Under the pieces are notes generated by a model, which did no database searches, was not told the DNA's origin, and worked only from the letters and a program-made list of their open reading frames with translations. Below, in pieces: positions 7,020-26,855 of a stretch of 36,023 nucleotides of DNA (the stretch's first letter is position 1; every line of letters starts with the position of its first letter). A program made the translations under genes and the position numbers. Source of the stretch: a virus (lineage: Duplodnaviria > Caudoviricetes); IMG/VR virus record IMGVR_UViG_3300012943_000021, positions 1 through 36,023 of that record. One strand, written 5' to 3'.

Positions 7020-7967
7020 CTAAGTCTGGTAAGGTCGATGATTGGGCCTGTCAGGTGAGATTGGTGGGTGATTGGGAACCAGGCAGGTGTGGTAGAAGCT
7101 GTATTGGCTGAACAGTGATGGAACCTTACCGTGCTTGACGTACAGCTCATAGGCGAAGGTCATCCAACCTTCGCCGTACTTGCGGGCGGCCATGATGCGC
7201 TGTCTGTCGCTTAGGGGGATTTTGACCCACTGCTCAATGTGGATACCCAGCTCGGCGCTCATCACCTCGAAGTTTTTCCACTTGCGGGAGGTCCTGAGAA
7301 GCATCAATGGTGGGTGACCTTCAAACAGACACGTGCTCGACCGCGCGTTGAAAAGAGGGCCGGCACGACCTGTCTTCAGGTAAACCTGGTATGAGAACTT
7401 ACACCAGTCCTTGCCACCTTTAGCGTGATAGTCTGTGATGTACGCGCGCTGTTCAGGTGGTATCTGAGAGAACTCCTCAAGGGACATACCGAGGACGGCA
7501 GCTGGCTTGATGCTTCTCTCAGAGCTGTTGTTCAGCAGGTTGACTGACGTTGAGACCCAGCGCAGGTTGGGGGCGCGGTTGTCCGACTTGTCTCGGTTGA
7601 TGTGATCAACGACCATGCCAGGCTTGTGCCCAGGGACCCTGACGAGGGCGACTGCCTGGTGTTGGTAGAGCGGTTCAGGGCCATTACCGCGAGAGATCGA
7701 GGTGATCAGGTAGCAGTCGTCTGGGTTCTTCTTGTCAACTGGGCACATCTTGAGAGGCCTGCCGGTCTTGCCGATGATCACGTCCTGCTGTGTCAGGTAG
7801 TAGCCTGGGTAGCCAGGGATGGGCTGCCACTCACTTTTTCTGGCAAGATCAGCGATCTTGGACATCATCGTCTTGACCTGCCTGCGCCGACCTTTGGTGA
7901 TTGACCTACCATGCTCTTCGTTGCGTGGGTACATACCAACGTAGTTTCCTACTCTGTTCTTCTTCAT
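7020..7967 (-). CDS. NUMOD4-HNH homing endonuclease-like protein with a duplicated C-terminal domain
   Basis: WQPIPGYPGYY (NUMOD4-like) and VVDHINRDKSDNRAPNLRWVSTSVN (HNH); start 7967 by ATGA overlap. Confidence 0.88.
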   Translation of the reverse strand: MKKNRVGNYVGMYPRNEEHGRSITKGRRRQVKTMMSKIADLARKSEWQPIPGYPGYYLTQQDVIIGKTGRPLKMCPVDKKNPDDCYLITSISRGNGPEPLYQHQAVALVRVPGHKPGMVVDHINRDKSDNRAPNLRWVSTSVNLLNNSSERSIKPAAVLGMSLEEFSQIPPEQRAYITDYHAKGGKDWCKFSYQVYLKTGRAGPLFNARSSTCLFEGHPPLMLLRTSRKWKNFEVMSAELGIHIEQWVKIPLSDRQRIMAARKYGEGWMTFAYELYVKHGKVPSLFSQYSFYHTCLVPNHPPISPDRPNHRPYQT

Positions 7968-8602
7968 ACGAGCCAGGCTCCTGGGCGTGTGCGGTAGCAA
8001 AGGGTGGGTTGGTAGGTGCATCCGACTGCACCATATGTGGTGTACACCTCATCAGAAAAAGTTCGGCCGCCTGGTGCTGGTAGAGATAGGTTCCAAGCGT
8101 GGGCGAACTGCACGGCTACCTTTGTCCTGAACAACCAGCATGAGGTGTCGGTAAAGAACTCACCTTGGTAGTTTGACTTGGGGCCGCAGCTATCCATCAG
8201 GTCGTCCTTGATGAACTTTCCGTCCTGATCGTAGAGGCCGCGGTAAGAGCAGGCGATGCCGGCCTTGAGGTTCAGCAGGCTTTCGAGGTGGTCTGGCTGA
8301 TACCAGTTGTCCTCGTCAAGGTAGGCGATGTGCTCGGTGTTGACGAGGTGGGTGAAGGCGGCGTGGATGCGGTGGCCGAAGTGGACGCCTTGGTGGGTAT
8401 TCTCAGGGAGGACGGTCAGGTTGATGCACTCAGCGCCGCGCTCGTCCCAGATGTCGCTGATTGCTGCATTAGAGGCGGTGTGCCAATGCTCCTCGCCGTC
8501 AACGATGACCCATGGACGAGCCTCAACTGACTGATCCAAGACTGACAGGATGGCCTGCTTGAGGTGCTTTGTACCGATTGTGGGAATGAGAACTGTGATC
8601 AT
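7964..8602 (-). CDS. Glycosyltransferase family 2 (GT-A fold)
   Basis: ITVLIPT...LKQAILSVLDQ...VIVDG N-terminus and IAYLDEDNWY DxD motif. Confidence 0.88.
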   Translation of the reverse strand: MITVLIPTIGTKHLKQAILSVLDQSVEARPWVIVDGEEHWHTASNAAISDIWDERGAECINLTVLPENTHQGVHFGHRIHAAFTHLVNTEHIAYLDEDNWYQPDHLESLLNLKAGIACSYRGLYDQDGKFIKDDLMDSCGPKSNYQGEFFTDTSCWLFRTKVAVQFAHAWNLSLPAPGGRTFSDEVYTTYGAVGCTYQPTLCYRTRPGAWLV

Positions 8603-8721
8603 TTACGCGCCTTGATGGCTTCTACGAGGTTGTCGATGGCACACCCAATGCCAATCAAAAATAACCCAATAAAGAATAGCTCGACGCAAATGATCCCCTG
8701 AGTGATGTTCATGATGTTCAT
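8599..8721 (-). CDS. Small single-pass membrane protein, 40 aa
   Basis: ATGA overlaps on both sides; one hydrophobic segment. Confidence 0.55.
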   Translation of the reverse strand: MNIMNITQGIICVELFFIGLFLIGIGCAIDNLVEAIKARK

Positions 8722-9368
8722 GCTCTTCCCCTGAAAGTGTAAGTGCCCGTGTGGTTCAACTGGGCGGGCAGGATGGTCATGTCGATCCCAACTTCCCGGC
8801 ACAGGTGGTTGAAGTAGTAGTCCTCTGAGAGCTCGATGTTGTCTACTCGCCCTGTCTGGTAGAAGTTCGTAATGACCTCCTTCTCCTGCGGCTCATAGGC
8901 AGATGAGACAACTGGCTTCAGCTTCTCGAAGACCTCTCGCTTGATCAGCTGAAAGCCGCCCTGAAGGTACAGTGGGTCGGTGTCATAGCTGGCAGCTGCG
9001 AGCTCAAGCTCTCTGGCGGTGCTGTCAGGCTTCTTCTGGAGCTGCGCCTTAACGCCGTCCCAGTTGATGTTCTTCTTTGGGTAGCGGCAGCCGATCACCG
9101 GCTTGTCGGCCTTCAAGAGATCGAGGATGAGCGTAGGGTCGCCTGAGACGTCGGCGTCAAGGAAGAAGAGGTGGGTGAAGCCTGACTTGAGGAAGTTGTG
9201 CACGAGCCGGTTGCGCGCCCTGGTGATGAAGCTCTCGCCGCCGATGAACTGGCAGGCGACGTCGATCTTGTTGTAGAAGCAGACGCCCTGAATACCGAGA
9301 AGCGTCGAGGTGGTGTTGATCGTCAGCTGGTGCGAGTAGCACGGCATGCAGATCAGAACTGATGTCAC
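8718..9368 (-). CDS. GT-A fold glycosyltransferase-like protein
   Basis: VLICMPCY, ESFITRARN, THLFFLDADV, GFQLIKREVF and LSEDYYF motifs; GTG start with GGAGGAG RBS and GTGA overlap. Confidence 0.82.
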   Translation of the reverse strand: MTSVLICMPCYSHQLTINTTSTLLGIQGVCFYNKIDVACQFIGGESFITRARNRLVHNFLKSGFTHLFFLDADVSGDPTLILDLLKADKPVIGCRYPKKNINWDGVKAQLQKKPDSTARELELAAASYDTDPLYLQGGFQLIKREVFEKLKPVVSSAYEPQEKEVITNFYQTGRVDNIELSEDYYFNHLCREVGIDMTILPAQLNHTGTYTFRGRA

Positions 9369-9568
9369 GACAGCTCCTCCGAGCCAGGTGCCTGGACCTT
9401 TGAAGCCTCGCAAATACATCTAACTGAATGCTCCATCTCACCAAATGCCCACGCATAATGAGGTGCTCTCCACGGTCGAGATGACACGAGAGGACCAAAA
9501 CTATCTATGACCTCAATAGCGGCACGGCCGCACATTGATTTAGGTGTGTCAAATGGTAGGATTTTCAC
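9365..9568 (-). CDS. Hypothetical protein, 67 aa
   Basis: 4-nt overlaps with both neighbours. Confidence 0.5.
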   Translation of the reverse strand: MKILPFDTPKSMCGRAAIEVIDSFGPLVSSRPWRAPHYAWAFGEMEHSVRCICEASKVQAPGSEELS

Positions 9569-9906
9569 GGCAGTTCAGACCCTTCAGATGGCGGCGTGGA
9601 AGCGTTGAGCAACGCAACACCTTTGTCTGTCAACCAGCCAGTGCGCAATGACACACCGCTCTCTGCCAAACCTTTGTTATGCACTCGCTCCATTGCTCGG
9701 AAAGCAACCTTTTCGCTGCACCCTGTTTCTGTAGCAAGCGTCTCATAGGGGAATGGGTGTTCTTCACCTTGTGCAGAGAAGTAGTCGAAGAAGGACTGCC
9801 CTGACTTCTGCCACTTGTCATGTATTTCACGTGTCTTCGTTGCATACGCATGAATGTGCCGGCATACGAGCACATCTGAAAGGTCCTTGGTTTGCAGCGC
9901 ATTCAT
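9565..9906 (-). CDS. Hypothetical protein, possible winged-helix DNA-binding domain
   Basis: YETLATETGCSEKVAFRAMERVHNKGL...WLTDKG resembles a wHTH; coupled to neighbours. Confidence 0.55.
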   Translation of the reverse strand: MNALQTKDLSDVLVCRHIHAYATKTREIHDKWQKSGQSFFDYFSAQGEEHPFPYETLATETGCSEKVAFRAMERVHNKGLAESGVSLRTGWLTDKGVALLNASTPPSEGSELP

Positions 9907-10181
9907 GGTGCCTCCTGCTCCGGTGGGCGCTTGGAAGCGTCTCTTGCTGCTCTCAATGCATACTGAAGTGTTCGCTGGACAGACTGCCCAAACTCTGCGC
10001 GTGCTGGGTTCTGGTATTTCTCCATCAACTCGTTGAAGAGCACGTGGTCAGAAGGTCCTTCACTGAACGGGCGTCCAGTGGCAATGCGTTGACCGCACTC
10101 TTGACCGGTAGTGAAAGCCTTCTGTCGAGTTTCCTCTAGTTGCTCAAGTGTGTAGAGCCCAAAGAAGTTGAGAAGTCTCAT
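9903..10181 (-). CDS. Hypothetical protein, 92 aa
   Basis: Part of the ATGA-coupled chain. Confidence 0.6.
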   Translation of the reverse strand: MRLLNFFGLYTLEQLEETRQKAFTTGQECGQRIATGRPFSEGPSDHVLFNELMEKYQNPARAEFGQSVQRTLQYALRAARDASKRPPEQEAP

Positions 10182-10396
10182 ACTGGCTCCACCGTTGGGG
10201 CGGGCTCTTGGTATGGCTTTGCTCCTGGGCGAAGCATCATCCTCATGTGAGGTCCTGCCTTCGCGTAAGGATGAGTACAGTCTTCACCGCGTGGCTGGAA
10301 GTAGACATCGTCGTAGTGGAAGAATGCACCATAGTCGATGAAGTAAACCTTGCCCAGCAGGCGAAGTTGCTCAATGTGGTCGTAAACAGACTTCAC
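10178..10396 (-). CDS. Hypothetical protein, 72 aa
   Basis: GTGA/ATGA-coupled chain. Confidence 0.6.
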   Translation of the reverse strand: MKSVYDHIEQLRLLGKVYFIDYGAFFHYDDVYFQPRGEDCTHPYAKAGPHMRMMLRPGAKPYQEPAPTVEPV

Positions 10397-10548
10397 TTGT
10401 TCACCTTTCTGCGCTTTTGGTTGGCGATCACTGTGGTTCCTAGTAGAGGACCCTTCTTCTTGAAGATTTTGTCGAAGTTGTCCCGGTAGGCCTTCGAGTT
10501 CTTCTTGGACTGGATGGTGTCTCCAGTATGTTCGTTCTTAGCTGCCAT
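10393..10548 (-). CDS. Small basic phage protein, 51 aa (not in ORF track)
   Basis: Manual translation MAAKNEHTGDTIQSKKNSKAYRDNFDKIFKKKGPLLGTTVIANQKRRKVNK; fills the gap; its stop overlaps the next start. Confidence 0.7.
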   Translation of the reverse strand: MAAKNEHTGDTIQSKKNSKAYRDNFDKIFKKKGPLLGTTVIANQKRRKVNK

Positions 10549-10918
10549 ATCTTGACTTCATTGCCTGTTTGTGCGACGATGTTCCAAGCTTGGTCTTGAC
10601 GCCTGCTCGCCCGTTGGTCTTCCACTTTGTCCCCGGCTGCCACACCAGGTTCTTGACTGAGTTGTTCTGCCAGTCAAAGTCCTTGTGGGCAAGCGTGCAC
10701 GTGCTGTCGTAACCTGGTACGAAGATGCGCGCGATCGCCCAGTCAAGGTACAGCATCTTGTGCTTGCCGTCAATGCAGGCGCAGCACATCAGCCGCTGGC
10801 CTCGGTTGTTTGGGACCAAGGACATGTACCGCTTGGACTTTTCAGACCAGATCTTCCAGCCCTTGGCGTGTGAGCCATCGAGCAGGTACTTCGGGTAGCC
10901 AGGTATCTTGTGCATCAT
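10538..10918 (-). CDS. Short NUMOD4-HNH-like protein, possibly degenerate
   Basis: IPGYPKY and AIARIFVP...LAHKDFDWQNNSVKNLVW; final HNH residue not evident. Confidence 0.72.
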   Translation of the reverse strand: MMHKIPGYPKYLLDGSHAKGWKIWSEKSKRYMSLVPNNRGQRLMCCACIDGKHKMLYLDWAIARIFVPGYDSTCTLAHKDFDWQNNSVKNLVWQPGTKWKTNGRAGVKTKLGTSSHKQAMKSRYGS

Positions 10919-10921
10919 ACC

Positions 10922-11482
10922 TTAGGGACCGGGGTGGGTAAACTGGGCGAGCGTCCTGCAGGTAGAGCAGGTTCCGCATGGTTGATTGTCAACAGGTGTG
11001 CGGCATGACCACGTCAGATCGAAGAGTTCCTTCGGAAGGGTCTGCGCCGCTTCAAATTTCGTCAGATGGCGAACTGGGAAGAGCAGCCGTGTCTCTGAAC
11101 TGAATGAAGAGAAGAGCTTACGGCCGCGGATACGGCGGTAGTCGTTGATCCCGATCTCATCGTCCTTCGTTGCGCCAAAAGCTACGCGCTCATATTTGCC
11201 GTTCTTCGCGAGTGCTCCGGCCACAAACATTGTTATGTCGCTGTCCCATAGCAGGTTGTCGCCAGGGACAGCGACCACACTGCCATCTGTCAGTGGGAAG
11301 TTGTAGCCGTGAGCGCTCATCCACTTAAGAATGTCTTCTACCGCCTTAGTCTCACGCTCATCTCTACCCTCACGGTTGATGATGTGAACGTGGTGAACAT
11401 GGACGTTCTCGTCCTTGAGCGCCCACAGGGCAGCCGTGCTGTCCGCGCCGCCAGAGAGCATCAAGAGGATTGGCTTCTTCAT
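10922..11482 (-). CDS. QueC-like PP-loop ATPase (7-cyano-7-deazaguanine synthase family, divergent)
   Basis: LMLSGGADS PP-loop and TWSC-x8-C-x2-C-x2-C zinc site. Confidence 0.85.
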   Translation of the reverse strand: MKKPILLMLSGGADSTAALWALKDENVHVHHVHIINREGRDERETKAVEDILKWMSAHGYNFPLTDGSVVAVPGDNLLWDSDITMFVAGALAKNGKYERVAFGATKDDEIGINDYRRIRGRKLFSSFSSETRLLFPVRHLTKFEAAQTLPKELFDLTWSCRTPVDNQPCGTCSTCRTLAQFTHPGP

Positions 11483-11979
11483 TTGGTGAAGATCAACACA
11501 ACGATTGGAGCAAGGCCTGGTTCATCAGACGGAGCCTCAATTGCCAGCTTCGCGTAGCTGAAGCCATTCTCAAACGCAAGCAGGCAGAAATCATGAGGTG
11601 AGAGCTTGCTCAGCAGCCGAGGGGTTTCGATAGTGCACTTGTCTGTGTAAAGTCGAACCCTGAACTGACCATCTTTTGATAACGCCTTATGACAGCGCTC
11701 GAGAACCGTTGGATAATCCTCGACAGGGAGGCAGTTAAATGAGCCGTCGGCGATGATGTAGTCGTAGTAGTTCTCTGGCATGTCCATCAGGCGCCAATCC
11801 TGGATAACATCCCCGCTCTCGAAGTCTACGACGGTAACGTTCACAGGCTTGACGAGGTGCAGTCGTGAGCGCCCGAGGTGGAGGATCTCTGGGTAGAGAG
11901 CCCTGCGCTCCTCATCGTTGGCACGAAGCCGTGGATCGAGAACTGGGTTGTTCTCCCATAGGTGCTTGGTCTCGATCAT
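11479..11979 (-). CDS. Class I SAM-dependent methyltransferase-like protein
   Basis: ILHLG, VVDF, DWRLMDMPENYYDYIIADGSF and LERCHKALSKDGQF follow the class I MTase motif order. Confidence 0.72.
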   Translation of the reverse strand: MIETKHLWENNPVLDPRLRANDEERRALYPEILHLGRSRLHLVKPVNVTVVDFESGDVIQDWRLMDMPENYYDYIIADGSFNCLPVEDYPTVLERCHKALSKDGQFRVRLYTDKCTIETPRLLSKLSPHDFCLLAFENGFSYAKLAIEAPSDEPGLAPIVVLIFTK

Positions 11980-12383
11980 TCTACAACCATGTTTACACGG
12001 TGGTCTTCTACCATGAAGTAGTTCTGACCGTCAACTGAAAGTCGCTGGCCCGCCTTCTCGTATGAGACGATAATGTCTCCAACCTTGCACTTGTTTGGAA
12101 TGCGGTTGCCATGTGAGACAGTCTTTGGGAACTTGCCAAGCTCTGGGTAGTAGCCCTTGCCTGAGGAGACGACGATGGCGACAACTTCCCTGTTTGGGTT
12201 CTTGTCTACCTCGACCAGCTGGAACCCTGGGATGTTGAACTCCTCGTCTACTGGAACGCAGACAAGCCAGCACTCGTTGGCGCGCAGGCCGCAGACATGG
12301 CCCTTGAGCTCCTTCTGCATCTTCTTGGCGCGCTTGACGGTCAGCTCGTTGACGCCTGGTCCTGGGTTTTCTTTCTTGCTCAT
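11976..12383 (-). CDS. groES: GroES/Cpn10-like co-chaperonin
   Basis: AIVVSSGKG...KVGDIIV...AGQRLSVDGQNYFMVEDHRVNMVVE matches the Cpn10 pattern. Confidence 0.8.
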   Translation of the reverse strand: MSKKENPGPGVNELTVKRAKKMQKELKGHVCGLRANECWLVCVPVDEEFNIPGFQLVEVDKNPNREVVAIVVSSGKGYYPELGKFPKTVSHGNRIPNKCKVGDIIVSYEKAGQRLSVDGQNYFMVEDHRVNMVVE

Positions 12384-12769
12384 GTTGGCTCCAGGAATGC
12401 CTTGCGCATCGCGTGGAAGTCGGCCGACTTCTTGGTGATTGCGGCGTTCTGAACGTGCTTTGGGATCAAGTGCAGCTCAGGGAAGACGCCAGGGCCGTAG
12501 CCGACAAGGTGGCGAAGGATAGCTATCTCTAGCGCAAGCTTGAGAAGGTCCTGCTCGGTTGGCTTCGAAACCTCGAGGCGGCGCTTGAGCTCGGCCTTGA
12601 CGTCCTTCATCGTATGCGAATGAGGGTTGGTTGGCCAGTATTTGACTGGCACCTCTATCACGTCAGCCAGCTCTTGGTTGGTGAAGTCGGGCAGGCGCTT
12701 TAGCAGGATTGCTGCTAGCGCTTCCTTTGGGTCTGGAAGGGTTTCCAGCTCTGTTTGTTCTTCAGTCAT
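12380..12769 (-). CDS. Hypothetical protein, 129 aa
   Basis: ATG 12769 with GGAG RBS; ATGA overlap downstream. Confidence 0.65.
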   Translation of the reverse strand: MTEEQTELETLPDPKEALAAILLKRLPDFTNQELADVIEVPVKYWPTNPHSHTMKDVKAELKRRLEVSKPTEQDLLKLALEIAILRHLVGYGPGVFPELHLIPKHVQNAAITKKSADFHAMRKAFLEPT

Positions 12770-12941
12770 TCGTCTTCTCCGATGGAGCTGCCGGCATCTT
12801 CTCGATCTCAGTGATCGCTGAACCGACATACTGGCCAATCTTGATGAGCGCGCCTTCGCCGTCAAAATATTGAAGGCCGCTGATCTGCAGGCCGGTTTCT
12901 GTTACGAGCTCAAGCTCGATGCGAACGGTCTTGATCTTCAT
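12762..12941 (-). CDS. Hypothetical protein, 59 aa (not in ORF track)
   Basis: Manual translation MKIKTVRIELELVTETGLQISGLQYFDGEGALIKIGQYVGSAITEIEKMPAAPSEKTND; AAGGA RBS; ATGA overlap. Confidence 0.6.
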   Translation of the reverse strand: MKIKTVRIELELVTETGLQISGLQYFDGEGALIKIGQYVGSAITEIEKMPAAPSEKTND

Positions 12942-13093
12942 AGTGATTTCCTTTTTAGTTCTGAAAGGTCCCAGCGTATCTCGTCAATCACAGTCAGGCG
13001 CTGGGACCAGGCTGAGTAGGTGCAAAAGTCTATGGCAAAAGCGATCGGCAGGCTGATCAAGTCCAACAGGAGCTTAACAAGTTTACCAATCAT
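12938..13093 (-). CDS. Small hydrophobic protein, 51 aa
   Basis: GGAGGA RBS before ATG 13093 (MIGKLVKLLL). Confidence 0.6.
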   Translation of the reverse strand: MIGKLVKLLLDLISLPIAFAIDFCTYSAWSQRLTVIDEIRWDLSELKRKSL

Positions 13094-13136
13094 AGTTCCT
13101 CCATTCGATGGAATATTTATCCACCGAGGACCTGGC

Positions 13137-13164
13137 AAAGAGAAGGGGCTCATTGAGCCCCTTT
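13137..13164 (-). terminator. Intrinsic terminator of the tRNA array
   Basis: AAGGGGCTC-AAT-GAGCCCCTT hairpin followed by CTCTTT on the - strand. Confidence 0.7.
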
Positions 13165-13182
13165 GCGCCTTACGGCATCGGC

Positions 13183-13205
13183 GTGTTCCACCCGTCCTGG
13201 CTGAC
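13183..13205. repeat. 23-bp inverted repeat, copy 1 (tRNA-Gln 3' end plus trailer)
   Basis: GTGTTCCACCCGTCCTGGCTGAC is the exact reverse complement of 14160-14182. Confidence 0.95.
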
Positions 13206-13273
13206 CTCGTAGGGCTCGAACCTACACCTCAGCGTTCAGAGCGCTGCGTCCTGCCAGATTAGACGAAAGGTCA
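13198..13273 (-). tRNA. trnQ: tRNA-Gln (CUG)
   Basis: Cloverleaf; anticodon arm CAGCG-CT CTG AA-CGCTG; GGTTCGAGCCC T arm; encoded CCA. Confidence 0.93.
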
Positions 13274-13283
13274 AAAATCGAAA

Positions 13284-13343
13284 GGGTCGTCAGGAGGGAC
13301 AATGGAAATGCACCCTTGCGGTCCTTACGGATACCACCGACCC
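13284..13343 (-). ncRNA. Candidate structured small RNA between tRNA-Arg and tRNA-Gln
   Basis: Closing stem GGGTCG/CGACCC, two GNRA hairpins (TCC-GTAA-GGA, CC-GCAA-GG), CATTGTCCCTCCT tract. Confidence 0.5.
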
Positions 13344-13347
13344 AAGC

Positions 13348-13422
13348 TGGCACCCTCGAGTGGAGTTGAACCACCTTTCCTGACGTTCGTAGCGTCTGGC
13401 CCAGTAGACCGCTGGCGAGGGT
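13348..13422 (-). tRNA. trnR: tRNA-Arg (ACG), non-canonical D-arm region
   Basis: Acceptor ACCCTCG/CGAGGGT, anticodon GACG-CT ACG AA-CGTC, GGTTCAACTCC T arm, GCCA end; lacks U8. Confidence 0.82.
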
Positions 13423-13425
13423 AGA

Positions 13426-13544
13426 TGACGTGTGAAGGTTAGTTCCACCTCCGCGGGAACCACTTAAGGTTTACCCCCTTTCTTCGTCCGCAAGGCTTTA
13501 TTGTCCTACACGGGCTGGCGGTATGCTCGTTACACTACACGTCA
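13426..13544 (-). ncRNA. Candidate 119-nt structured RNA between tRNA-Pro and tRNA-Arg
   Basis: Ends pair (TGACGTGT/ACACGTCA); internal stems CCGC/GCGG, AAGG/CCTT, GGTTCC/GGAACT; nearly fills the spacer. Confidence 0.55.
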
Positions 13545-13549
13545 AAAAC

Positions 13550-13625
13550 TGGTCGGAATGACAGGGCTCGAACCTGCGGCCTCAACGTCCCAAACGTCGC
13601 GCTCTACCAACTGAGCTACATTCCG
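13550..13625 (-). tRNA. trnP: tRNA-Pro (UGG)
   Basis: Canonical: CGGAATG acceptor, TAGCTCAGTTGGTAGAGC D arm, TT TGG GA loop, GGTTCGAGCCC, ACCA. Confidence 0.96.
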
Positions 13626-13630
13626 ATCGG

Positions 13631-13638
13631 GTATTTAC
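13631..13638 (-). promoter_or_regulatory. Putative promoter GTAAATAC for the tRNA array
   Basis: TAAATA core 6 nt upstream of the tRNA-Pro 5' end. Confidence 0.55.
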
Positions 13639-14093
13639 ACACCATCGAGCAGGACTGGGGCGAAGGTCGCTCGGCGGCGCGCCACCCGTGCGGTTGATGG
13701 TGTTTTTACCTGGACGACCCCGCTTCGAGTTGGCTTGCCAAGGTTGTGCTTCTTGCGGAAAGCGCGGATGTCGTCAGCAAGCTCCTTGGGGTGCAGCTTG
13801 TTGGGGGACGTGTAGATCGGGGTGATGGGCTTCCAGCTAAGGACGTGGTGGCGACCTGGTTGATCAACGTTGATCACGGAGATGCGGGACTTGCCGTCAA
13901 AGTAAGCTTGGAACCGGTTCAAGCCGTCCTTTTTGATCTTGGGAGGGTTGACCTCCTTGGTTGCCTGGCGTCCAACCTCACGGCCGGTGATCACTGCGCA
14001 GTTCTCGAAATGCCAGCGGCGCATCACCTGACCGGCACCAGTCTTTTCACAGTGAGGGCACTTGATCTGCTTTACGTTGTACTGACGGGTCAT
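13635..14093 (-). CDS. Basic zinc-finger protein, 152 aa
   Basis: CPHC-x12-H-x3-C motif (CPHCEKTG...MRRWHFENC) of the kind attached to phage homing endonucleases; GGAG RBS. Confidence 0.7.
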   Translation of the reverse strand: MTRQYNVKQIKCPHCEKTGAGQVMRRWHFENCAVITGREVGRQATKEVNPPKIKKDGLNRFQAYFDGKSRISVINVDQPGRHHVLSWKPITPIYTSPNKLHPKELADDIRAFRKKHNLGKPTRSGVVQVKTPSTARVARRRATFAPVLLDGV

Positions 14094-14449
14094 CTCTTGC
14101 TCCTCTGCTTGCGGAGACGCAGGCTTCTCTTCTTGAGGCGGGCAACCTTCTCCTCATGCGTCAGCCAGGACGGGTGGAACACCCCTGATGGGTTGTCGAG
14201 GTGGTGCTTCAGGTAGGCGGACAGGCCCATCAGGAAGAGGTGAGGTGATGGGGTCCGCTTGGCGGCCCGTTCAACCTTGCCCAACATCCAGTTGCAACCT
14301 GAACAGAGGACGGCACGTATCTGCCCGTTTTCATGTGAGTGATCAAGGCAGGCACGAGCCGGTTGCTTCCCGCAGAGGAGACAAATCCCTCCCTGTTCCT
14401 TTAGAAGAGCTTCCCTTGTTGGCTTGACTTGGGTTGGTTTCAATCTCAT
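14090..14449 (-). CDS. Recombination endonuclease VII-like (His-Me finger) nuclease
   Basis: QGGICLLC...CLDHSH..GQIRAVLCSGCN..LGKVE and HPSWLTHEEK tail. Confidence 0.88.
   Translation of the reverse strand: MRLKPTQVKPTREALLKEQGGICLLCGKQPARACLDHSHENGQIRAVLCSGCNWMLGKVERAAKRTPSPHLFLMGLSAYLKHHLDNPSGVFHPSWLTHEEKVARLKKRSLRLRKQRSKR
14160..14182. repeat. 23-bp inverted repeat, copy 2 (inside the endonuclease VII gene)
   Basis: GTCAGCCAGGACGGGTGGAACAC; reverse complement of 13183-13205. Confidence 0.95.
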
Positions 14450-14519
14450 ACATCTACTTAACCATTCACCAACCAGGAGTATGCTGACTTCTGAGGAGAC
14501 GCCCTGCGCTCTCCTCATA

Positions 14520-14700
14520 ATCAGTAAACGCCGTCGGATGACGCGCAGCGGCAGACGACCGCGATGTCAAACTTGCTTTTTAAAGTAGTAAGAACATAGC
14601 AGCGCCCGAAAGCAAGTGGGACACAACATCCAAAAGCAAGTCAACAGGTCGCTTGCTTTCAATACATAGTTTACAGATAAGCAAGTCAGGGTGTAAAATG
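14520..14700. promoter_or_regulatory. Divergent control region with five AAGCAAG boxes; candidate operator or origin
   Basis: AT-rich strand-switch point; boxes at 14571-14580 (-), 14609-14617 (+), 14632-14641 (+), 14652-14659 (-), 14679-14687 (+); TAAAAT at 14694-14699. Confidence 0.6.
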
Positions 14701-15150
14701 GCTGAAGTGATCAAGAAGAAATGGGGCGGTAAGCGTCCCAACCAGTCTGGCCGTCCCCGTAAGGCATGGCCGACCAGAGAAGAGTTCGTTAAGGAGTGCT
14801 GGTATCCTGCCATCAAGCGCGCGCGCGCCCGCAGGGATGTTCCAGATCAGGTTGAGTTTAGCATCACAGACCTGCGCAAGGTCTATGGTGCTGAGAACAT
14901 GAAGCTCTGGTGGAAGGTCTTCCGCAAGTCCAGGCAGGGTCGGTGCTGGGCTTGGGTTGACCCCAAGACTGGTCGCTTCAGCAAGCACAAGAACGTGGTC
15001 TCAGCCTTCGAGCTGTACTATCACATCGAGGAGATCATCACGTGCGTGGCTGAGGAGCTTGGCCACACAATTGCCGATCTGAATGCCAGCGACTGGCCGA
15101 CTGCCAAGATGCTTGAGCGCATCAAGAACATGAAGGAAAAGACAAAATGA
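14698..15150 (+). CDS. Putative DNA-binding early protein (AT-hook-like N-terminus)
   Basis: WGGKRPNQSGRPRK motif; first gene of the + strand operon; start is ATG 14698 or GTG 14707. Confidence 0.7.
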   Translation: MAEVIKKKWGGKRPNQSGRPRKAWPTREEFVKECWYPAIKRARARRDVPDQVEFSITDLRKVYGAENMKLWWKVFRKSRQGRCWAWVDPKTGRFSKHKNVVSAFELYYHIEEIITCVAEELGHTIADLNASDWPTAKMLERIKNMKEKTK

Positions 15151-15575
15151 ACCCATCAAAAGCAGAGATCACCCGCGCCCTCAAGACCCTACCGAAGGAT
15201 GGCTTGTTTGCTATCTTGATCGCCACCCCTGAGTTTACCCAGCTGAACGCGATCAAGTTCGACAGCATCCCTGAGATCCTGCTCGACACGGAGAAGTTTG
15301 ACGACAAGCGCTTCTGGGACCTTCTCGAAAACCCACCAGTTGGGGCGCCAGATGACGAGTTCGACATCATCGTCCAAGGCGTGCTTTCGATCGCGATGAA
15401 CCAGGGGATCAAGATCAACCCAGGCACCATCCTGGTCGCCGGCATCCAGACGAACATCTTCGTCGAGGAGCTGACCGTAGATGAGGCGGCCAGCGTCCTG
15501 TCCAAGACCTCCGGGGTTGAACACCTCTGGGACCCGGAAGGGCTGGGCGAGCGGTCATTTGCCACAATCCACTGA
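15147..15575 (+). CDS. Hypothetical acidic protein, 142 aa
   Basis: ATGA overlap with the upstream gene; codon style like the other phage genes. Confidence 0.75.
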   Translation: MNPSKAEITRALKTLPKDGLFAILIATPEFTQLNAIKFDSIPEILLDTEKFDDKRFWDLLENPPVGAPDDEFDIIVQGVLSIAMNQGIKINPGTILVAGIQTNIFVEELTVDEAASVLSKTSGVEHLWDPEGLGERSFATIH

Positions 15576-15618
15576 AATAATCCAAGTGTTAAATGGGCAA
15601 CACTTTTCAGTTTAGATA

Positions 15619-15631
15619 GTGTACAATGGCT
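15619..15631 (+). promoter_or_regulatory. Putative sigma70-type early promoter -10 (GTGTACAATGGCT)
   Basis: AT-rich intergenic gap; differs by one base from GTGTAAAATGGCT at 14691-14703. Confidence 0.5.
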
Positions 15632-15655
15632 CTAGGTTAGAAATGGAGTACACAA

Positions 15656-15784
15656 ATGATTTTCTTGATGTTTTTCGGATACCCCCTGCTGATCATTCTG
15701 GTCGCGATGTACCGTTGCGACAAGAGCCTGCGCGCAAGAGAGAAAGCCCATCTTGAGAAGATGGCTCGTCGGGCGTTCGCATGA
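15656..15784 (+). CDS. Small membrane protein, 42 aa (not in ORF track)
   Basis: GGAG RBS; MIFLMFFGYPLLIILVAMYRCDKSLRAREKAHLEKMARRAFA; ATGA overlap with the next ORF. Confidence 0.62.
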   Translation: MIFLMFFGYPLLIILVAMYRCDKSLRAREKAHLEKMARRAFA

Positions 15785-15930
15785 ACCGCATTGAAGCCAA
15801 CCAGAAGCGACGCAAGAGGCACGAGCGCCTGGTTCAAGCTGTCAAGAACTTGGACTACGGCGACCCTGAGCGTCGCAAGATGCTTCAGGCCCAGAAAACC
15901 ATTCGAACTTTGAAGAGGAAATGCAAATGA
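15781..15930 (+). CDS. Small basic protein, 49 aa (not in ORF track)
   Basis: MNRIEANQKRRKRHERLVQAVKNLDYGDPERRKMLQAQKTIRTLKRKCK; ATGA overlaps on both sides. Confidence 0.62.
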   Translation: MNRIEANQKRRKRHERLVQAVKNLDYGDPERRKMLQAQKTIRTLKRKCK

Positions 15931-16223
15931 TCAACGCGCTACACTTCGGTCTGATCTTCATCATGTGGATCCAGCTGCTTCGGTTGGCATATCTTGACTT
16001 CAGGGTTGATGGTTTCGTCCAAACAGTGTACACATACGGCGCGATATTTGCTGTGCTGTTCTACCTGAACAAGTCAACGCATATTCCAGATGCTATCGAT
16101 CGGTCCGTCGGCATCAGTAATGGCAATGGGTCAGTGCTCGCGATCATCGTTTCACTCACTATCAACGTGTTGTTGTCAATCTGCATCACGCGAAAGCAGA
16201 AGAAGCTGGAGGCGCTGTCATGA
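15927..16223 (+). CDS. Membrane protein with three hydrophobic segments
   Basis: GAGG RBS, ATGA overlaps, hydrophobic stretches. Confidence 0.68.
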   Translation: MINALHFGLIFIMWIQLLRLAYLDFRVDGFVQTVYTYGAIFAVLFYLNKSTHIPDAIDRSVGISNGNGSVLAIIVSLTINVLLSICITRKQKKLEALS

Positions 16224-16483: not shown

Positions 16484-16572
16484 GGTGTCGTGGCTGAGCG
16501 GTCAAAAGCAGTCGTTTTATGAACGACCACGGATGCGCCTGAGCGCAGGTTCAAATCCTGTCGACACCTCCA
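16484..16572 (+). tRNA. Class II (long variable arm) tRNA with UAU anticodon; nominally Ile, identity uncertain
   Basis: GGTGTCG/CGACACC acceptor, GTCGT-TT TAT GA-ACGAC, 17-nt variable region, GGTTCAAATCC, TCCA end. Confidence 0.85.
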
Positions 16573-16577
16573 ATTTT

Positions 16578-16666
16578 GGAACCATGGCTGAGAGGTCAAA
16601 AGCACCCGCCCCAAAAGCGGGTGTGGGTGCGCCCACGCGGGGGTTCAAATCCCTCTGGTTCCTCCA
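16578..16666 (+). tRNA. Class II tRNA with CAA anticodon; nominally Leu, atypical (C33, U73)
   Basis: GGAACCA/TGGTTCC acceptor, CCCGC-CC CAA AA-GCGGG, V arm GTGGG-TGCG-CCCAC, TCCA end. Confidence 0.85.
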
Positions 16667-16695: not shown

Positions 16696-17400
16696 ATGCA
16701 GCTTTCAGCAAACAAAGATATCCAACGCGTGGCCGATCGGGTTATCTCGCTCGGCCTGGCCAAAGGCGACAAGACAAAGGCCAATCATGGTCGCCTCATT
16801 CCGACAGATCGTTCTAAACCAATCTTGGTTTTTCCATCAACACCATCAGATCATCGAAGTGTGTTGAACTTCTTCGCTGATGTTAAGCGAACTTGGGGGC
16901 CCGAATGGGATAGAGACCCAGACAAGGAATACGTTCCCATCATCGATGAGACCAAATACGCTGAGAACACCGTGGTGGACCCAGCAGAAACGATGGCTCT
17001 CGATGATCTAGAAGCACAGCTGCAGAAGCTGCAAGGTATCCGCAACAAGCGTGTCGCAGAGGCACGTGTTCAAATTGAAGCTGAACTTGGGCGGGCTGAA
17101 GCAGATTGGCGGTCAGCTCAAGAAGATGTGCGCGCAGCTGAAGCGCTCTGCGCTGAAGCTCGCCTCCGCGTGTATCGCTTGAAGGAACGCCTCGGCCACC
17201 GCGATCCTGTTGAGCGCAAGATCACCAGGAACCTACCAGATAACATTCTTGAGCTGTACAATAAGACGAAGAGCTCGTGTATTGCCACGCGTGGTCGTAA
17301 CCCTGGTGAGTTCTCGTGCAGGTCTTTCGCGGCTATGCATAAGCTCGATTACAACAGCGTGCTTGCATGGTACGCGGCCAACAGGAACACATTGAGTTAA
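16696..17400 (+). CDS. HicA-like N-terminal domain plus coiled coil and possible C-terminal HTH, 234 aa
   Basis: AAGGAG RBS; NHGRL...ILVFPSTPSDHRSVLNFFADVKR resembles the HicA-like dsRBD-fold family. Confidence 0.65.
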   Translation: MQLSANKDIQRVADRVISLGLAKGDKTKANHGRLIPTDRSKPILVFPSTPSDHRSVLNFFADVKRTWGPEWDRDPDKEYVPIIDETKYAENTVVDPAETMALDDLEAQLQKLQGIRNKRVAEARVQIEAELGRAEADWRSAQEDVRAAEALCAEARLRVYRLKERLGHRDPVERKITRNLPDNILELYNKTKSSCIATRGRNPGEFSCRSFAAMHKLDYNSVLAWYAANRNTLS

Positions 17401-17462
17401 GGGCGGACGAAGCCGTAAGGCCCGTCAAGGTCTTCCAGAAACACCTAAACCTCGCCCTGATC

Positions 17463-25829: not shown

Positions 25830-26855
25830 TTATGATGGGCGGTAGCGAACAAGCGCTCCACCAAGGAAGTAGAAGGTCGTGCCAGGGGCAAACTGGTTGG
25901 CGTAGAACTTGAAGCCGGTCAGTCCTGCTTCGGATACGTCGTACACAAACTCAGTCGAGCCGCGCACGAGCGGGATGTCAGCGTAGGTTCCCCAGTCGTC
26001 CAGCGGTGCCCAACCGTTGACTGTCCAGCCAGCCGCGGTGTTTGTTGGCTGGTAGGAGTTGAACGTTCCCTGTAGGGTCCAGTTCAGCAGCAACGTGCCA
26101 TATGCGCCGGTTGGGAACTTGACCTGGGTCTTCCACCAGGTGTCCTCTTCCTCAGGCTGATCTGCGCCAATGTAAAAGCTATCACCAGAGCTGCGGCTGC
26201 CCATGATCGCAAACTGGGCCTGAATGCAGAACGCGTCGCCGTCGTTGAAGTAGTCGCCGTTGACCCAGCGGCTCCAGTTTGGAGTGAAGATCGTGGAGCC
26301 CGAGTTGTTACCCATGATGACCGTCGTTGGGTAGATCTCAAGCGTCTCAGCCGTACCGACTGGAGGACCAGACCAGTACTGCATCGTCGGATTTGGGTCC
26401 TCACCACCGTGGATGTGCAGGCGGAGCCAGGCATCATCTGGGTCGATCTCGTCGTCAACGACTGATGGTACACCACCAAAGGTGCCGTCATCATTGAACT
26501 GCAGGTCTGGGGTGTCGCCACCAGGGGTAGCACCACCACCACCACCTCCACCTGAGGATGGAGAGCCGACGCCGTTGACGTTCTCGAGGTCGAACTGCCA
26601 GACACCGTGCACATCGTACACGGAGAAGTTGTAGCCGCCATCAGCCTGCCAGATTGGGTTCGTCAGCAGGCCATCTGGGGTCAGAGGAACAGGGTTTGGG
26701 TTTGCAGGATCATCGTCAGCCTGACCTGTGTAGGTGTTCTTCTGCTCAGACCACGAAGGGTAGGCGTAGGCCTCGATGTAGCCATTTGCTAGGACCTGAC
26801 CGTTGCGGTTGGTCAGGCGCTGGCCGTTGAATGCTGGTGACAGGTAGCGGGACAT
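25830..26855 (-). CDS. Second tailspike/fibre with a paralogous head-binding-type domain, 341 aa
   Basis: NGQVLANGYIEAYAYPSWS..NTY...NPNPVPLTPDG; TAATG coupling to the upstream gene. Confidence 0.78.
   Translation of the reverse strand: MSRYLSPAFNGQRLTNRNGQVLANGYIEAYAYPSWSEQKNTYTGQADDDPANPNPVPLTPDGLLTNPIWQADGGYNFSVYDVHGVWQFDLENVNGVGSPSSGGGGGGGATPGGDTPDLQFNDDGTFGGVPSVVDDEIDPDDAWLRLHIHGGEDPNPTMQYWSGPPVGTAETLEIYPTTVIMGNNSGSTIFTPNWSRWVNGDYFNDGDAFCIQAQFAIMGSRSSGDSFYIGADQPEEEDTWWKTQVKFPTGAYGTLLLNWTLQGTFNSYQPTNTAAGWTVNGWAPLDDWGTYADIPLVRGSTEFVYDVSEAGLTGFKFYANQFAPGTTFYFLGGALVRYRPS

Follow-up and report, generated by a model that had tools for sequence, protein, structure and literature searches.

RNase III processing stems and lambda sib retroregulation both rely on downstream sequence in the same transcript: cleavage of the helix lowers the output of an upstream gene or frees enclosed structural RNAs. 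RNase III can cut duplexes of about two helical turns. Phage genes subject to RNA-structure control include T4 gene 49, which encodes endonuclease VII. In T4, the nuclease genes gene 49, I-TevI, segB and mobE are all described as being under such control, with a helix covering the start region in the case of gene 49 (PMC3014915). The leuZ 3′ ETS of Escherichia coli, a tRNA 3′ trailer of ∼50-60 nt, has been proposed to base-pair after its release from the precursor (Lalaouna et al. 2015, as presented in the review PMC8166272). Theta ribozymes, which are self-cleaving HDV-like pseudoknots, represent a structured element located directly behind a phage tRNA 3′ end (PMC10879173).

We compared these systems to a locus in an uncultured phage genome (Caudoviricetes; IMG/VR record IMGVR_UViG_3300012943_000021), the 35.9-kb stretch of DNA analyzed here and referred to as the window. 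Its ends overlap by 123 nt, and the genome is classed as having direct terminal repeats and as 100% complete. PHROGs and Pfam scans revealed P22-like capsid, portal, terminase and tail genes, with the best capsid matches being 25-36% identical and originating from phages with proteobacterial or unknown hosts. No integrase, recombinase, reverse transcriptase or DNA polymerase was recognized in the 44 ORFs by PHROGs and Pfam, several small ORFs being without annotation. The P22-like genome looks complete without a recognizable replication, recombination or integration gene, and the five annotated capsid relatives differ in this respect. A cluster of glycosyltransferase-like, QueC-like, methyltransferase-like and GroES-like genes is located upstream of the terminase (7964-12383, minus strand).

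The locus is a leftward block on the minus strand, in which a promoter-like site is followed by the endonuclease VII gene, a zinc-finger ORF, tRNA-Pro, three tRNA-shaped or hairpin-rich stretches, tRNA-Gln(CUG) and a terminator-like hairpin (13163-13143). The sigma-70-like promoter candidate for the leftward transcript (14668..14697) scores 9 of 12 and is weak; two such sites were found, with 1.0 expected by chance. In the divergent intergenic region 14572-14686, a 7-nt core (AAGCAAG) occurs five times in both orientations, out of seven copies genome-wide; these copies could be operators or repeats of an origin, and they surround divergent promoter-like sites that overlap each other. The endonuclease VII gene (14090..14449, ∼119 aa) precedes a zinc-finger ORF that resembles a homing-endonuclease module (13635..14093) and that matched only itself in a protein homologue search. 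This ORF and tRNA-Pro(UGG) (13550..13625) both fall inside the loop predicted below. Folding then suggests a tRNA-shaped RNA with a long insert (13426..13544, z -1.45) and a CCA-bearing cloverleaf that resembles tRNA-Arg(ACG) but has an atypical D arm (13348..13422), neither of them called by ARAGORN or Rfam, and, as a weak prediction, a small multi-hairpin spacer with GNRA loops (13284..13343, z -1.3), which both programs missed as well. The tRNA-Gln(CUG) with its encoded CCA (13198..13273) reads the codon used for 95% of the Gln residues in 13 structural genes. Its trailer has the layout of a discrete-looking unit: an antisense block is followed by a small hairpin with a GNRA tetraloop (13167..13176) and by a 9-bp G+C-rich hairpin with a weak U tail (13137..13163), which is terminator-like by eye and received no terminator call from the scan tool. 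The GNRA hairpin CC-GTAA-GG recurs in non-coding sequence at 13168 and 13323 (minus strand) and at 17413 (plus strand), in two cases shortly before terminator-like hairpins, and could be boxB-like. On the plus strand, two 89-nt tRNA-like genes with long variable arms (16484-16572 and 16578-16666) have a 20-nt D-arm stretch in common. They were called Ile(UAU) and Leu(CAA), both carry a U discriminator and the second a C at position 33, and they may not decode normally. The ORF directly after this pair (16696-17400, plus strand; phrog_2089) has 70 N-terminal residues that resemble a HicA-type fold in its predicted structure.

The initial annotation had reported 13183-13205 to be the exact reverse complement of 14160-14182, and direct comparison of the two segments bears this out. 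The trailer-side arm (13183..13205) is made up of the last 8 nt of tRNA-Gln (13198-13205) and the first 15 nt of the 3′ trailer (13183-13197). The gene arm encodes VFHPSWLT on the minus strand, so both arms are transcribed from the same strand, and it precedes the start of the zinc-finger ORF (14093) by 67-89 nt. These details agree with the earlier description, as does an imperfect extension of ∼6 nt, in which 13176..13182 complements 14183-14190 with 6 matches, 1 mismatch and 1 gap. Random sequence equalled this extension in 2.6% of 1,500 trials (p ∼0.026). The target in the endonuclease VII coding sequence is exact over 14160-14182 and imperfect to 14190, with a 5-bp palindrome located within 14160..14190. 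The genome contains no exact inverted match longer than these 23 nt, and the runner-up among distant ones measures 17 nt. Whole-genome self-BLAST, a check suggested at the outset, found the match to be unique (E 4e-5), and the expectation that it would be unlikely by chance is reinforced by 60 order-4 Markov genomes, none of which reached 23 nt (longest 22, palindromes included). No degenerate third copy of the 23-mer is present in the genome, where the next best site has 7 mismatches; a multi-copy operator or iteron was rejected for this reason. A single Logan contig (35,930 nt, depth 30.7) spans positions 12000-16000 gap-free, with no difference to the window and no inversion joint. Its run is the only public one with the region, no RNA run being among those listed (which says nothing about expression), and may be the window's own source, so that it counters mis-assembly but does not represent an independent sample. 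The repeat is also shorter than the 31-letter words of the index. Although only a single source run is known, we thus regard chance or mis-assembly as a negligible explanation: the 23-nt inverted match is real, unique and beyond chance.

We next considered the gene arm in its protein context. The window protein matches PF02945 (Recombination endonuclease VII) with 50.4 bits, against a curated cut-off of 23.6, and phrog_423 with an E value of 2e-28, and the profile of alignment A5 matches T4 endonuclease VII structures (E 2.7e-17). Residues C23, C26, D36, H37, H39, C52 and N53 are invariant in A5, and the window protein also contains C49. With its zinc cysteines and DHxH/N active-site residues in place, the enzyme looks catalytically intact. 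The protein probably comprises 119 aa and starts at about 14449 rather than at 14518, since homologues align from about 14449. The gene arm corresponds to the conserved [FL]HP[ST]xLT motif (HP[S/T]) of the family, which is visible in T4 endonuclease VII as well, and its codons are ordinary for this phage. The same VFHPSWLT stretch is found in P0159, save for a His in place of the Trp. The codon of this Trp faces the CCA of the tRNA; among 153 distinct motif sites in the fetched loci, only the window has Trp, the others containing His (123), Phe (16), Tyr (10), Thr (2) or a blank (one). Trp is also present in 2 of the 19 other proteins of A5 (P0003 and P0005), P0003 being the closest other protein with this residue. 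The tree is compatible with one origin of the Trp as well as with several.

Because the gene arm encodes a conserved family motif, the alignment shows the 15 trailer bases to have been copied from the gene into the trailer, which makes the trailer the derived arm. The 8 tRNA bases represent an ordinary phage tRNA-Gln end, shared by several unrelated tRNA-Gln genes among 111 viral loci; this 8-mer occurs five times in the genome and corresponds to the Trp-Leu-Thr codons. Either a Trp codon was already in place and offered the microhomology from which copying began, or it was the gene that became adapted to the tRNA; the tree fits both. The trailer copy likely stems from a polymerase template switch, which is the simplest origin. 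Template switching yields perfect inverted repeats from short seeds in phages and bacteria and was first described in phage T4 (PMC5941160). Our locus shares with this quasi-palindrome mutagenesis the perfect inverted repeat and the short seed, but the process is described in PMC5941160 for short, close repeats, whereas the arms here are ∼950 nt apart. The combination of a perfect core and a decayed distal part is a hint that the copying event was not entirely recent. The trailer could alternatively be a captured cDNA, with the tRNA 3′ end priming reverse transcription at its 8-nt complement in the mRNA and the product recombining behind the tRNA gene. The geometry is exactly that of primer and extension, as the copied part starts right after the CCA and proceeds toward the mRNA 5′ end. 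Yet we find this scenario hardly credible, given that no reverse transcriptase was detected in the 44 phage ORFs scanned, that the 8-nt duplex is weak (-14.8 kcal/mol) and half locked in the acceptor stem, and that a DNA template switch reaches the same product more simply.

The initial annotation had also raised the option that the arms are DNA recombination sites inverting 13183-14182. The arms are indeed inverted, and one of them covers the 3′ end of a tRNA, where attachment sites are often located; inverting the segment would leave the tRNA intact, place a stop codon just past the shared stretch and remove the basic tail of the enzyme. This option is nonetheless very improbable: no recombinase or integrase was found among the 44 ORFs (PHROGs, Pfam), the contigs of one run, which drop rare variants, contain a single orientation and no inverted joint, and the gene is family-like on both sides of the arm, which a past simple inversion would not leave behind.

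No close relatives were found, all compared endonuclease VII loci being at most 50% identical. With endonuclease VII as the query, viral contigs yielded one weak locus and the protein collection nothing but the query itself, and neither the 23-mer nor a degenerate HPSWLTxEEK pattern had a match in viral contigs. Among GenBank phages and plasmids, matches were confined to the tRNA body, and none extended to the trailer. Profile scans for relatives returned distant genes, and none of 29 loci of terminase relatives (34-49% identical) contains a tRNA. Altogether, 260 loci were examined, 233 of them with an endonuclease VII match, including the window itself (L110); an inverted match of more than 15 nt to the endonuclease VII gene is present in 0 of the 232 others. 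In a duplex screen of 153 distinct motif sites, the window scored -58.7, compared with a mean of -27.4 (sd 4.6, best -39.1) for the 152 others, whose loci are at most ∼50% identical and mostly without tRNAs. Comparative evidence is absent rather than negative, and the distant loci neither confirm nor refute a function. We also surveyed tRNAs in 111 viral loci chosen by a similar tRNA end, a redundant set with full flanks for 80 loci only. Among 1,053 tRNA calls, including the window's 4, no match of this kind of at least 18 nt was found in the ∼1,049 others, the next-best matches measuring 17 and 16 nt. A search of mainly open-access literature brought up no report in which the trailer of a phage tRNA is antisense to coding sequence.

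Distant inverted repeats as such are not confined to the window. Five exact ones of at least 20 nt are present in 303 non-redundant loci out of 403 (2.77 Mb), none of them obviously of this kind, and they reach at most 20 nt in five annotated P22-like phages, 28 further viral and 28 prokaryotic loci (the 20-nt cases being L396 and L399). The one long record with a nuclease of the same subfamily (G001) contains no tRNA and no antisense to its nuclease. A 24-nt repeat in L094/G001 was rejected as a second case, as its motif is present in six exact copies and involves neither nuclease nor tRNA. In G001, a 14-nt motif occurs in six exact copies at C1:9518-11906 and 26227-26324 (L094, L442, L443). 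A 95-nt intergenic stretch of the same record is an inverted copy of both the start of a spanin-like gene (81%) and the interior of an unannotated 358-aa gene (47 nt, 94%), and the two proteins contain a nearly identical in-frame peptide. Directly behind the endonuclease VII gene of G001, a perfect 22-bp stem encloses 49 nt with a T-loop-like motif (C1:9374-9466; L094 6436-6528).

The simplest origin, which had been missed by the initial annotation, is a one-off gene-to-trailer copy, which may have no function. A single template switch would have added 15-22 nt of gene sequence in a place after the tRNA that tolerates insertions, and no selection would have acted on it. The feature is a singleton among all loci examined, and a pre-existing 8-nt microhomology suffices for its formation, considering that the tRNA end is ordinary, that the 8-mer is found five times in the genome and that Trp is also seen in P0003 and P0005. 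Perfect inverted repeats are made by template switching in phages and bacteria (PMC5941160), and exact distant ones of at least 20 nt were seen in 5 of the 303 non-redundant loci. We consider a neutral scar a serious possibility, nearly as likely as the antisense function discussed below. It would, however, have to accommodate a 950-nt spacer that appears long for the short-repeat template switching of PMC5941160, a distal part that has decayed around a perfect core, and the absence, as judged by inspection, of any case among the five background repeats in which a tRNA trailer is matched to a unique coding motif. In addition, a very stable predicted helix would bury the CCA of a tRNA reading the preferred Gln codon, which makes strict neutrality doubtful.

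We modeled the RNA pairing between the two arms. The predicted duplex energies are -51.6 kcal/mol for 23 bp, -42.3 kcal/mol for 19 bp with the tRNA folded, -31.4 kcal/mol for the trailer only (15 nt) and -14.8 kcal/mol for the mature tRNA end only, and opening costs amount to ∼7-14 kcal/mol (∼9.7 for the target, 8.8-13.9 for the precursor). The mature tRNA alone would thus bind poorly, so that any effect should come from the precursor or from a released trailer. In a modeled 1.36-kb transcript, each of the 23 pairs reaches a probability of 0.98 or more and the acceptor stem no longer forms; when the acceptor stem is enforced, 19 pairs stay at ∼1, at the price of 12.3 kcal/mol in ensemble stability. 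These are equilibrium two-dimensional fold models, which ignore ribosomes, tertiary structure and co-transcriptional processing. The predicted helix therein ranges from 19 bp with the tRNA folded to 23-30 bp with the acceptor stem opened, and closes a loop of ∼950 nt. In trans, a released trailer of ∼60 nt is predicted to pair over 15-22 bp. Provided that the two arms share a transcript, an inert helix is unlikely, because pair probabilities are ∼1 and forcing the target open costs 35 kcal/mol in the modeled transcript.

The antisense or long-range-helix reading of the initial annotation is plausible in these models: pairing between precursor and mRNA is strong (-51.6 kcal/mol) and is predicted in a read-through transcript. 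Pairing does not require the tRNA to unfold: 19 bp can form with the acceptor stem intact, although the CCA end would be buried. The 19-bp helix with an intact cloverleaf still covers the discriminator G73 together with the CCA end. It is conceivable that the helix mainly controls tRNA-Gln maturation, by burying G73 and CCA or by opening the acceptor stem until ribosomes or RNase III free the tRNA, much like rRNA processing stems. The 12.3 kcal/mol gained upon full pairing in the two-dimensional model, the position of the arms on either side of the whole tRNA block, and the rarity in the family of a Trp codon complementing the CCA (1 of 153 loci) would fit such a role. We nevertheless judge it to be quite unlikely, as the model leaves aside tRNA tertiary stability and co-transcriptional cutting, and as just one CCA end in the tRNA cluster has such a complementary partner.

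Our leading, still tentative proposal is that the mirror copy in the tRNA-Gln trailer pairs with the endonuclease VII mRNA and thereby restrains the nuclease in the manner of an antisense brake. Copying would have been seeded where 8 nt of the tRNA end match the Trp-Leu-Thr codons, and a polymerase template switch would have brought the gene stretch into the trailer. The trailer may then pair in cis, across the ∼950-nt loop, or in trans after its release, and the duplex may be cut by host RNase III or hinder ribosomes, leading to less full-length nuclease and to a freed tRNA block. Cleavage there would leave a nuclease mRNA that ends just short of the part encoding the basic tail. With 19-23 perfect pairs, and up to ∼29 including the extension, the predicted helix has the length of about two helical turns typical of RNase III processing stems. 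The brake is favored by a match beyond chance, a strong predicted duplex, an enzyme that looks catalytically intact, a trailer with the appearance of a discrete unit and the rarity of the configuration, and also by the perfect core with its decayed distal part (p ∼0.026). The restraint of T4 gene 49 by an RNA helix provides a precedent (PMC3014915). The proposal is weakened by the singleton nature of the locus, in which no compensatory change is demonstrable, and by the mid-gene position of the target: the nearest start codon is 67-89 nt away, and the helix may be removed by passing ribosomes. Both co-transcription and the terminator are predictions, the latter without a scan-tool call, and template switching alone gives perfect inverted repeats (PMC5941160). 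The RNase III of E. coli acts on duplexes within one RNA and between two, with sequence preferences (PMC6212723), and this selectivity also counts against the brake. In a bolder version, the tRNA precursor itself would be the antisense regulator: the trailer was copied from the nuclease gene, the gene swapped its usual His for Trp to pair with the CCA, and one helix couples tRNA-Gln release to endonuclease VII silencing. We consider this version unlikely.

If the antisense brake operates, a single copying error behind a tRNA gene would be a cheap route to a gene-specific antisense RNA that borrows the transcription and processing of the tRNA. RNAs from tRNA trailers, known as sRNA sponges, would then also control a coding sequence directly, and the RNA restraints described for phage nucleases would gain a long-range variant. 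Even a neutral copy would be a clear record of template switching over a long distance at the end of a tRNA.

How, then, does the locus relate to the described systems? As in the leuZ 3′ ETS, the pairing segment is located in the 3′ trailer of a tRNA precursor. However, the leuZ trailer is reported to sponge the sRNAs RyhB and RybB with Hfq (PMC8166272), whereas the predicted partner of the phage trailer is a coding sequence on the same predicted transcript, with 23 nt of perfect pairing that include the tRNA's own CCA, as seen in the DNA sequence. The only strong complement of the trailer within the phage genome is in fact the endonuclease VII coding sequence, and an sRNA partner of the leuZ type did not emerge there. 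As in T4, a phage DNA endonuclease would be restrained by an RNA helix on its mRNA, but the T4 helices described are local hairpins over the ribosome-binding site (PMC3014915), and the helix predicted here is long-range, mid-gene and contributed by a tRNA trailer. The location of a structured element directly 3′ of a phage tRNA is reminiscent of theta ribozymes (PMC10879173). In a rough test over the offsets tried, no full 7-bp P1 partner was found downstream, the best candidate having 6 of 7 pairs, mostly G-U, and there was no Rfam match. A downstream arm that forms a predicted helix with an upstream gene on the same predicted transcript is also a property of the lambda sib and RNase III stems. 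In contrast to lambda sib and rRNA stems, one arm here is part of a motif that codes for protein, the other extends over the end of a tRNA, and cleavage is our proposal. Cis-antisense RNAs and type I antitoxins, which are encoded opposite an overlapping target or pair over its translation start, differ from our locus, where both arms are on the same strand, ∼950 nt apart, with the target located mid-gene, and the cognate recombinase that a site-specific inversion system would have nearby was not found among the 44 ORFs. The feature would work like a cross of the leuZ 3′ ETS and the nuclease-restraining helices of T4, yet it is a member of neither group, nor does it belong to the cis-antisense RNAs, theta ribozymes or inversion systems.
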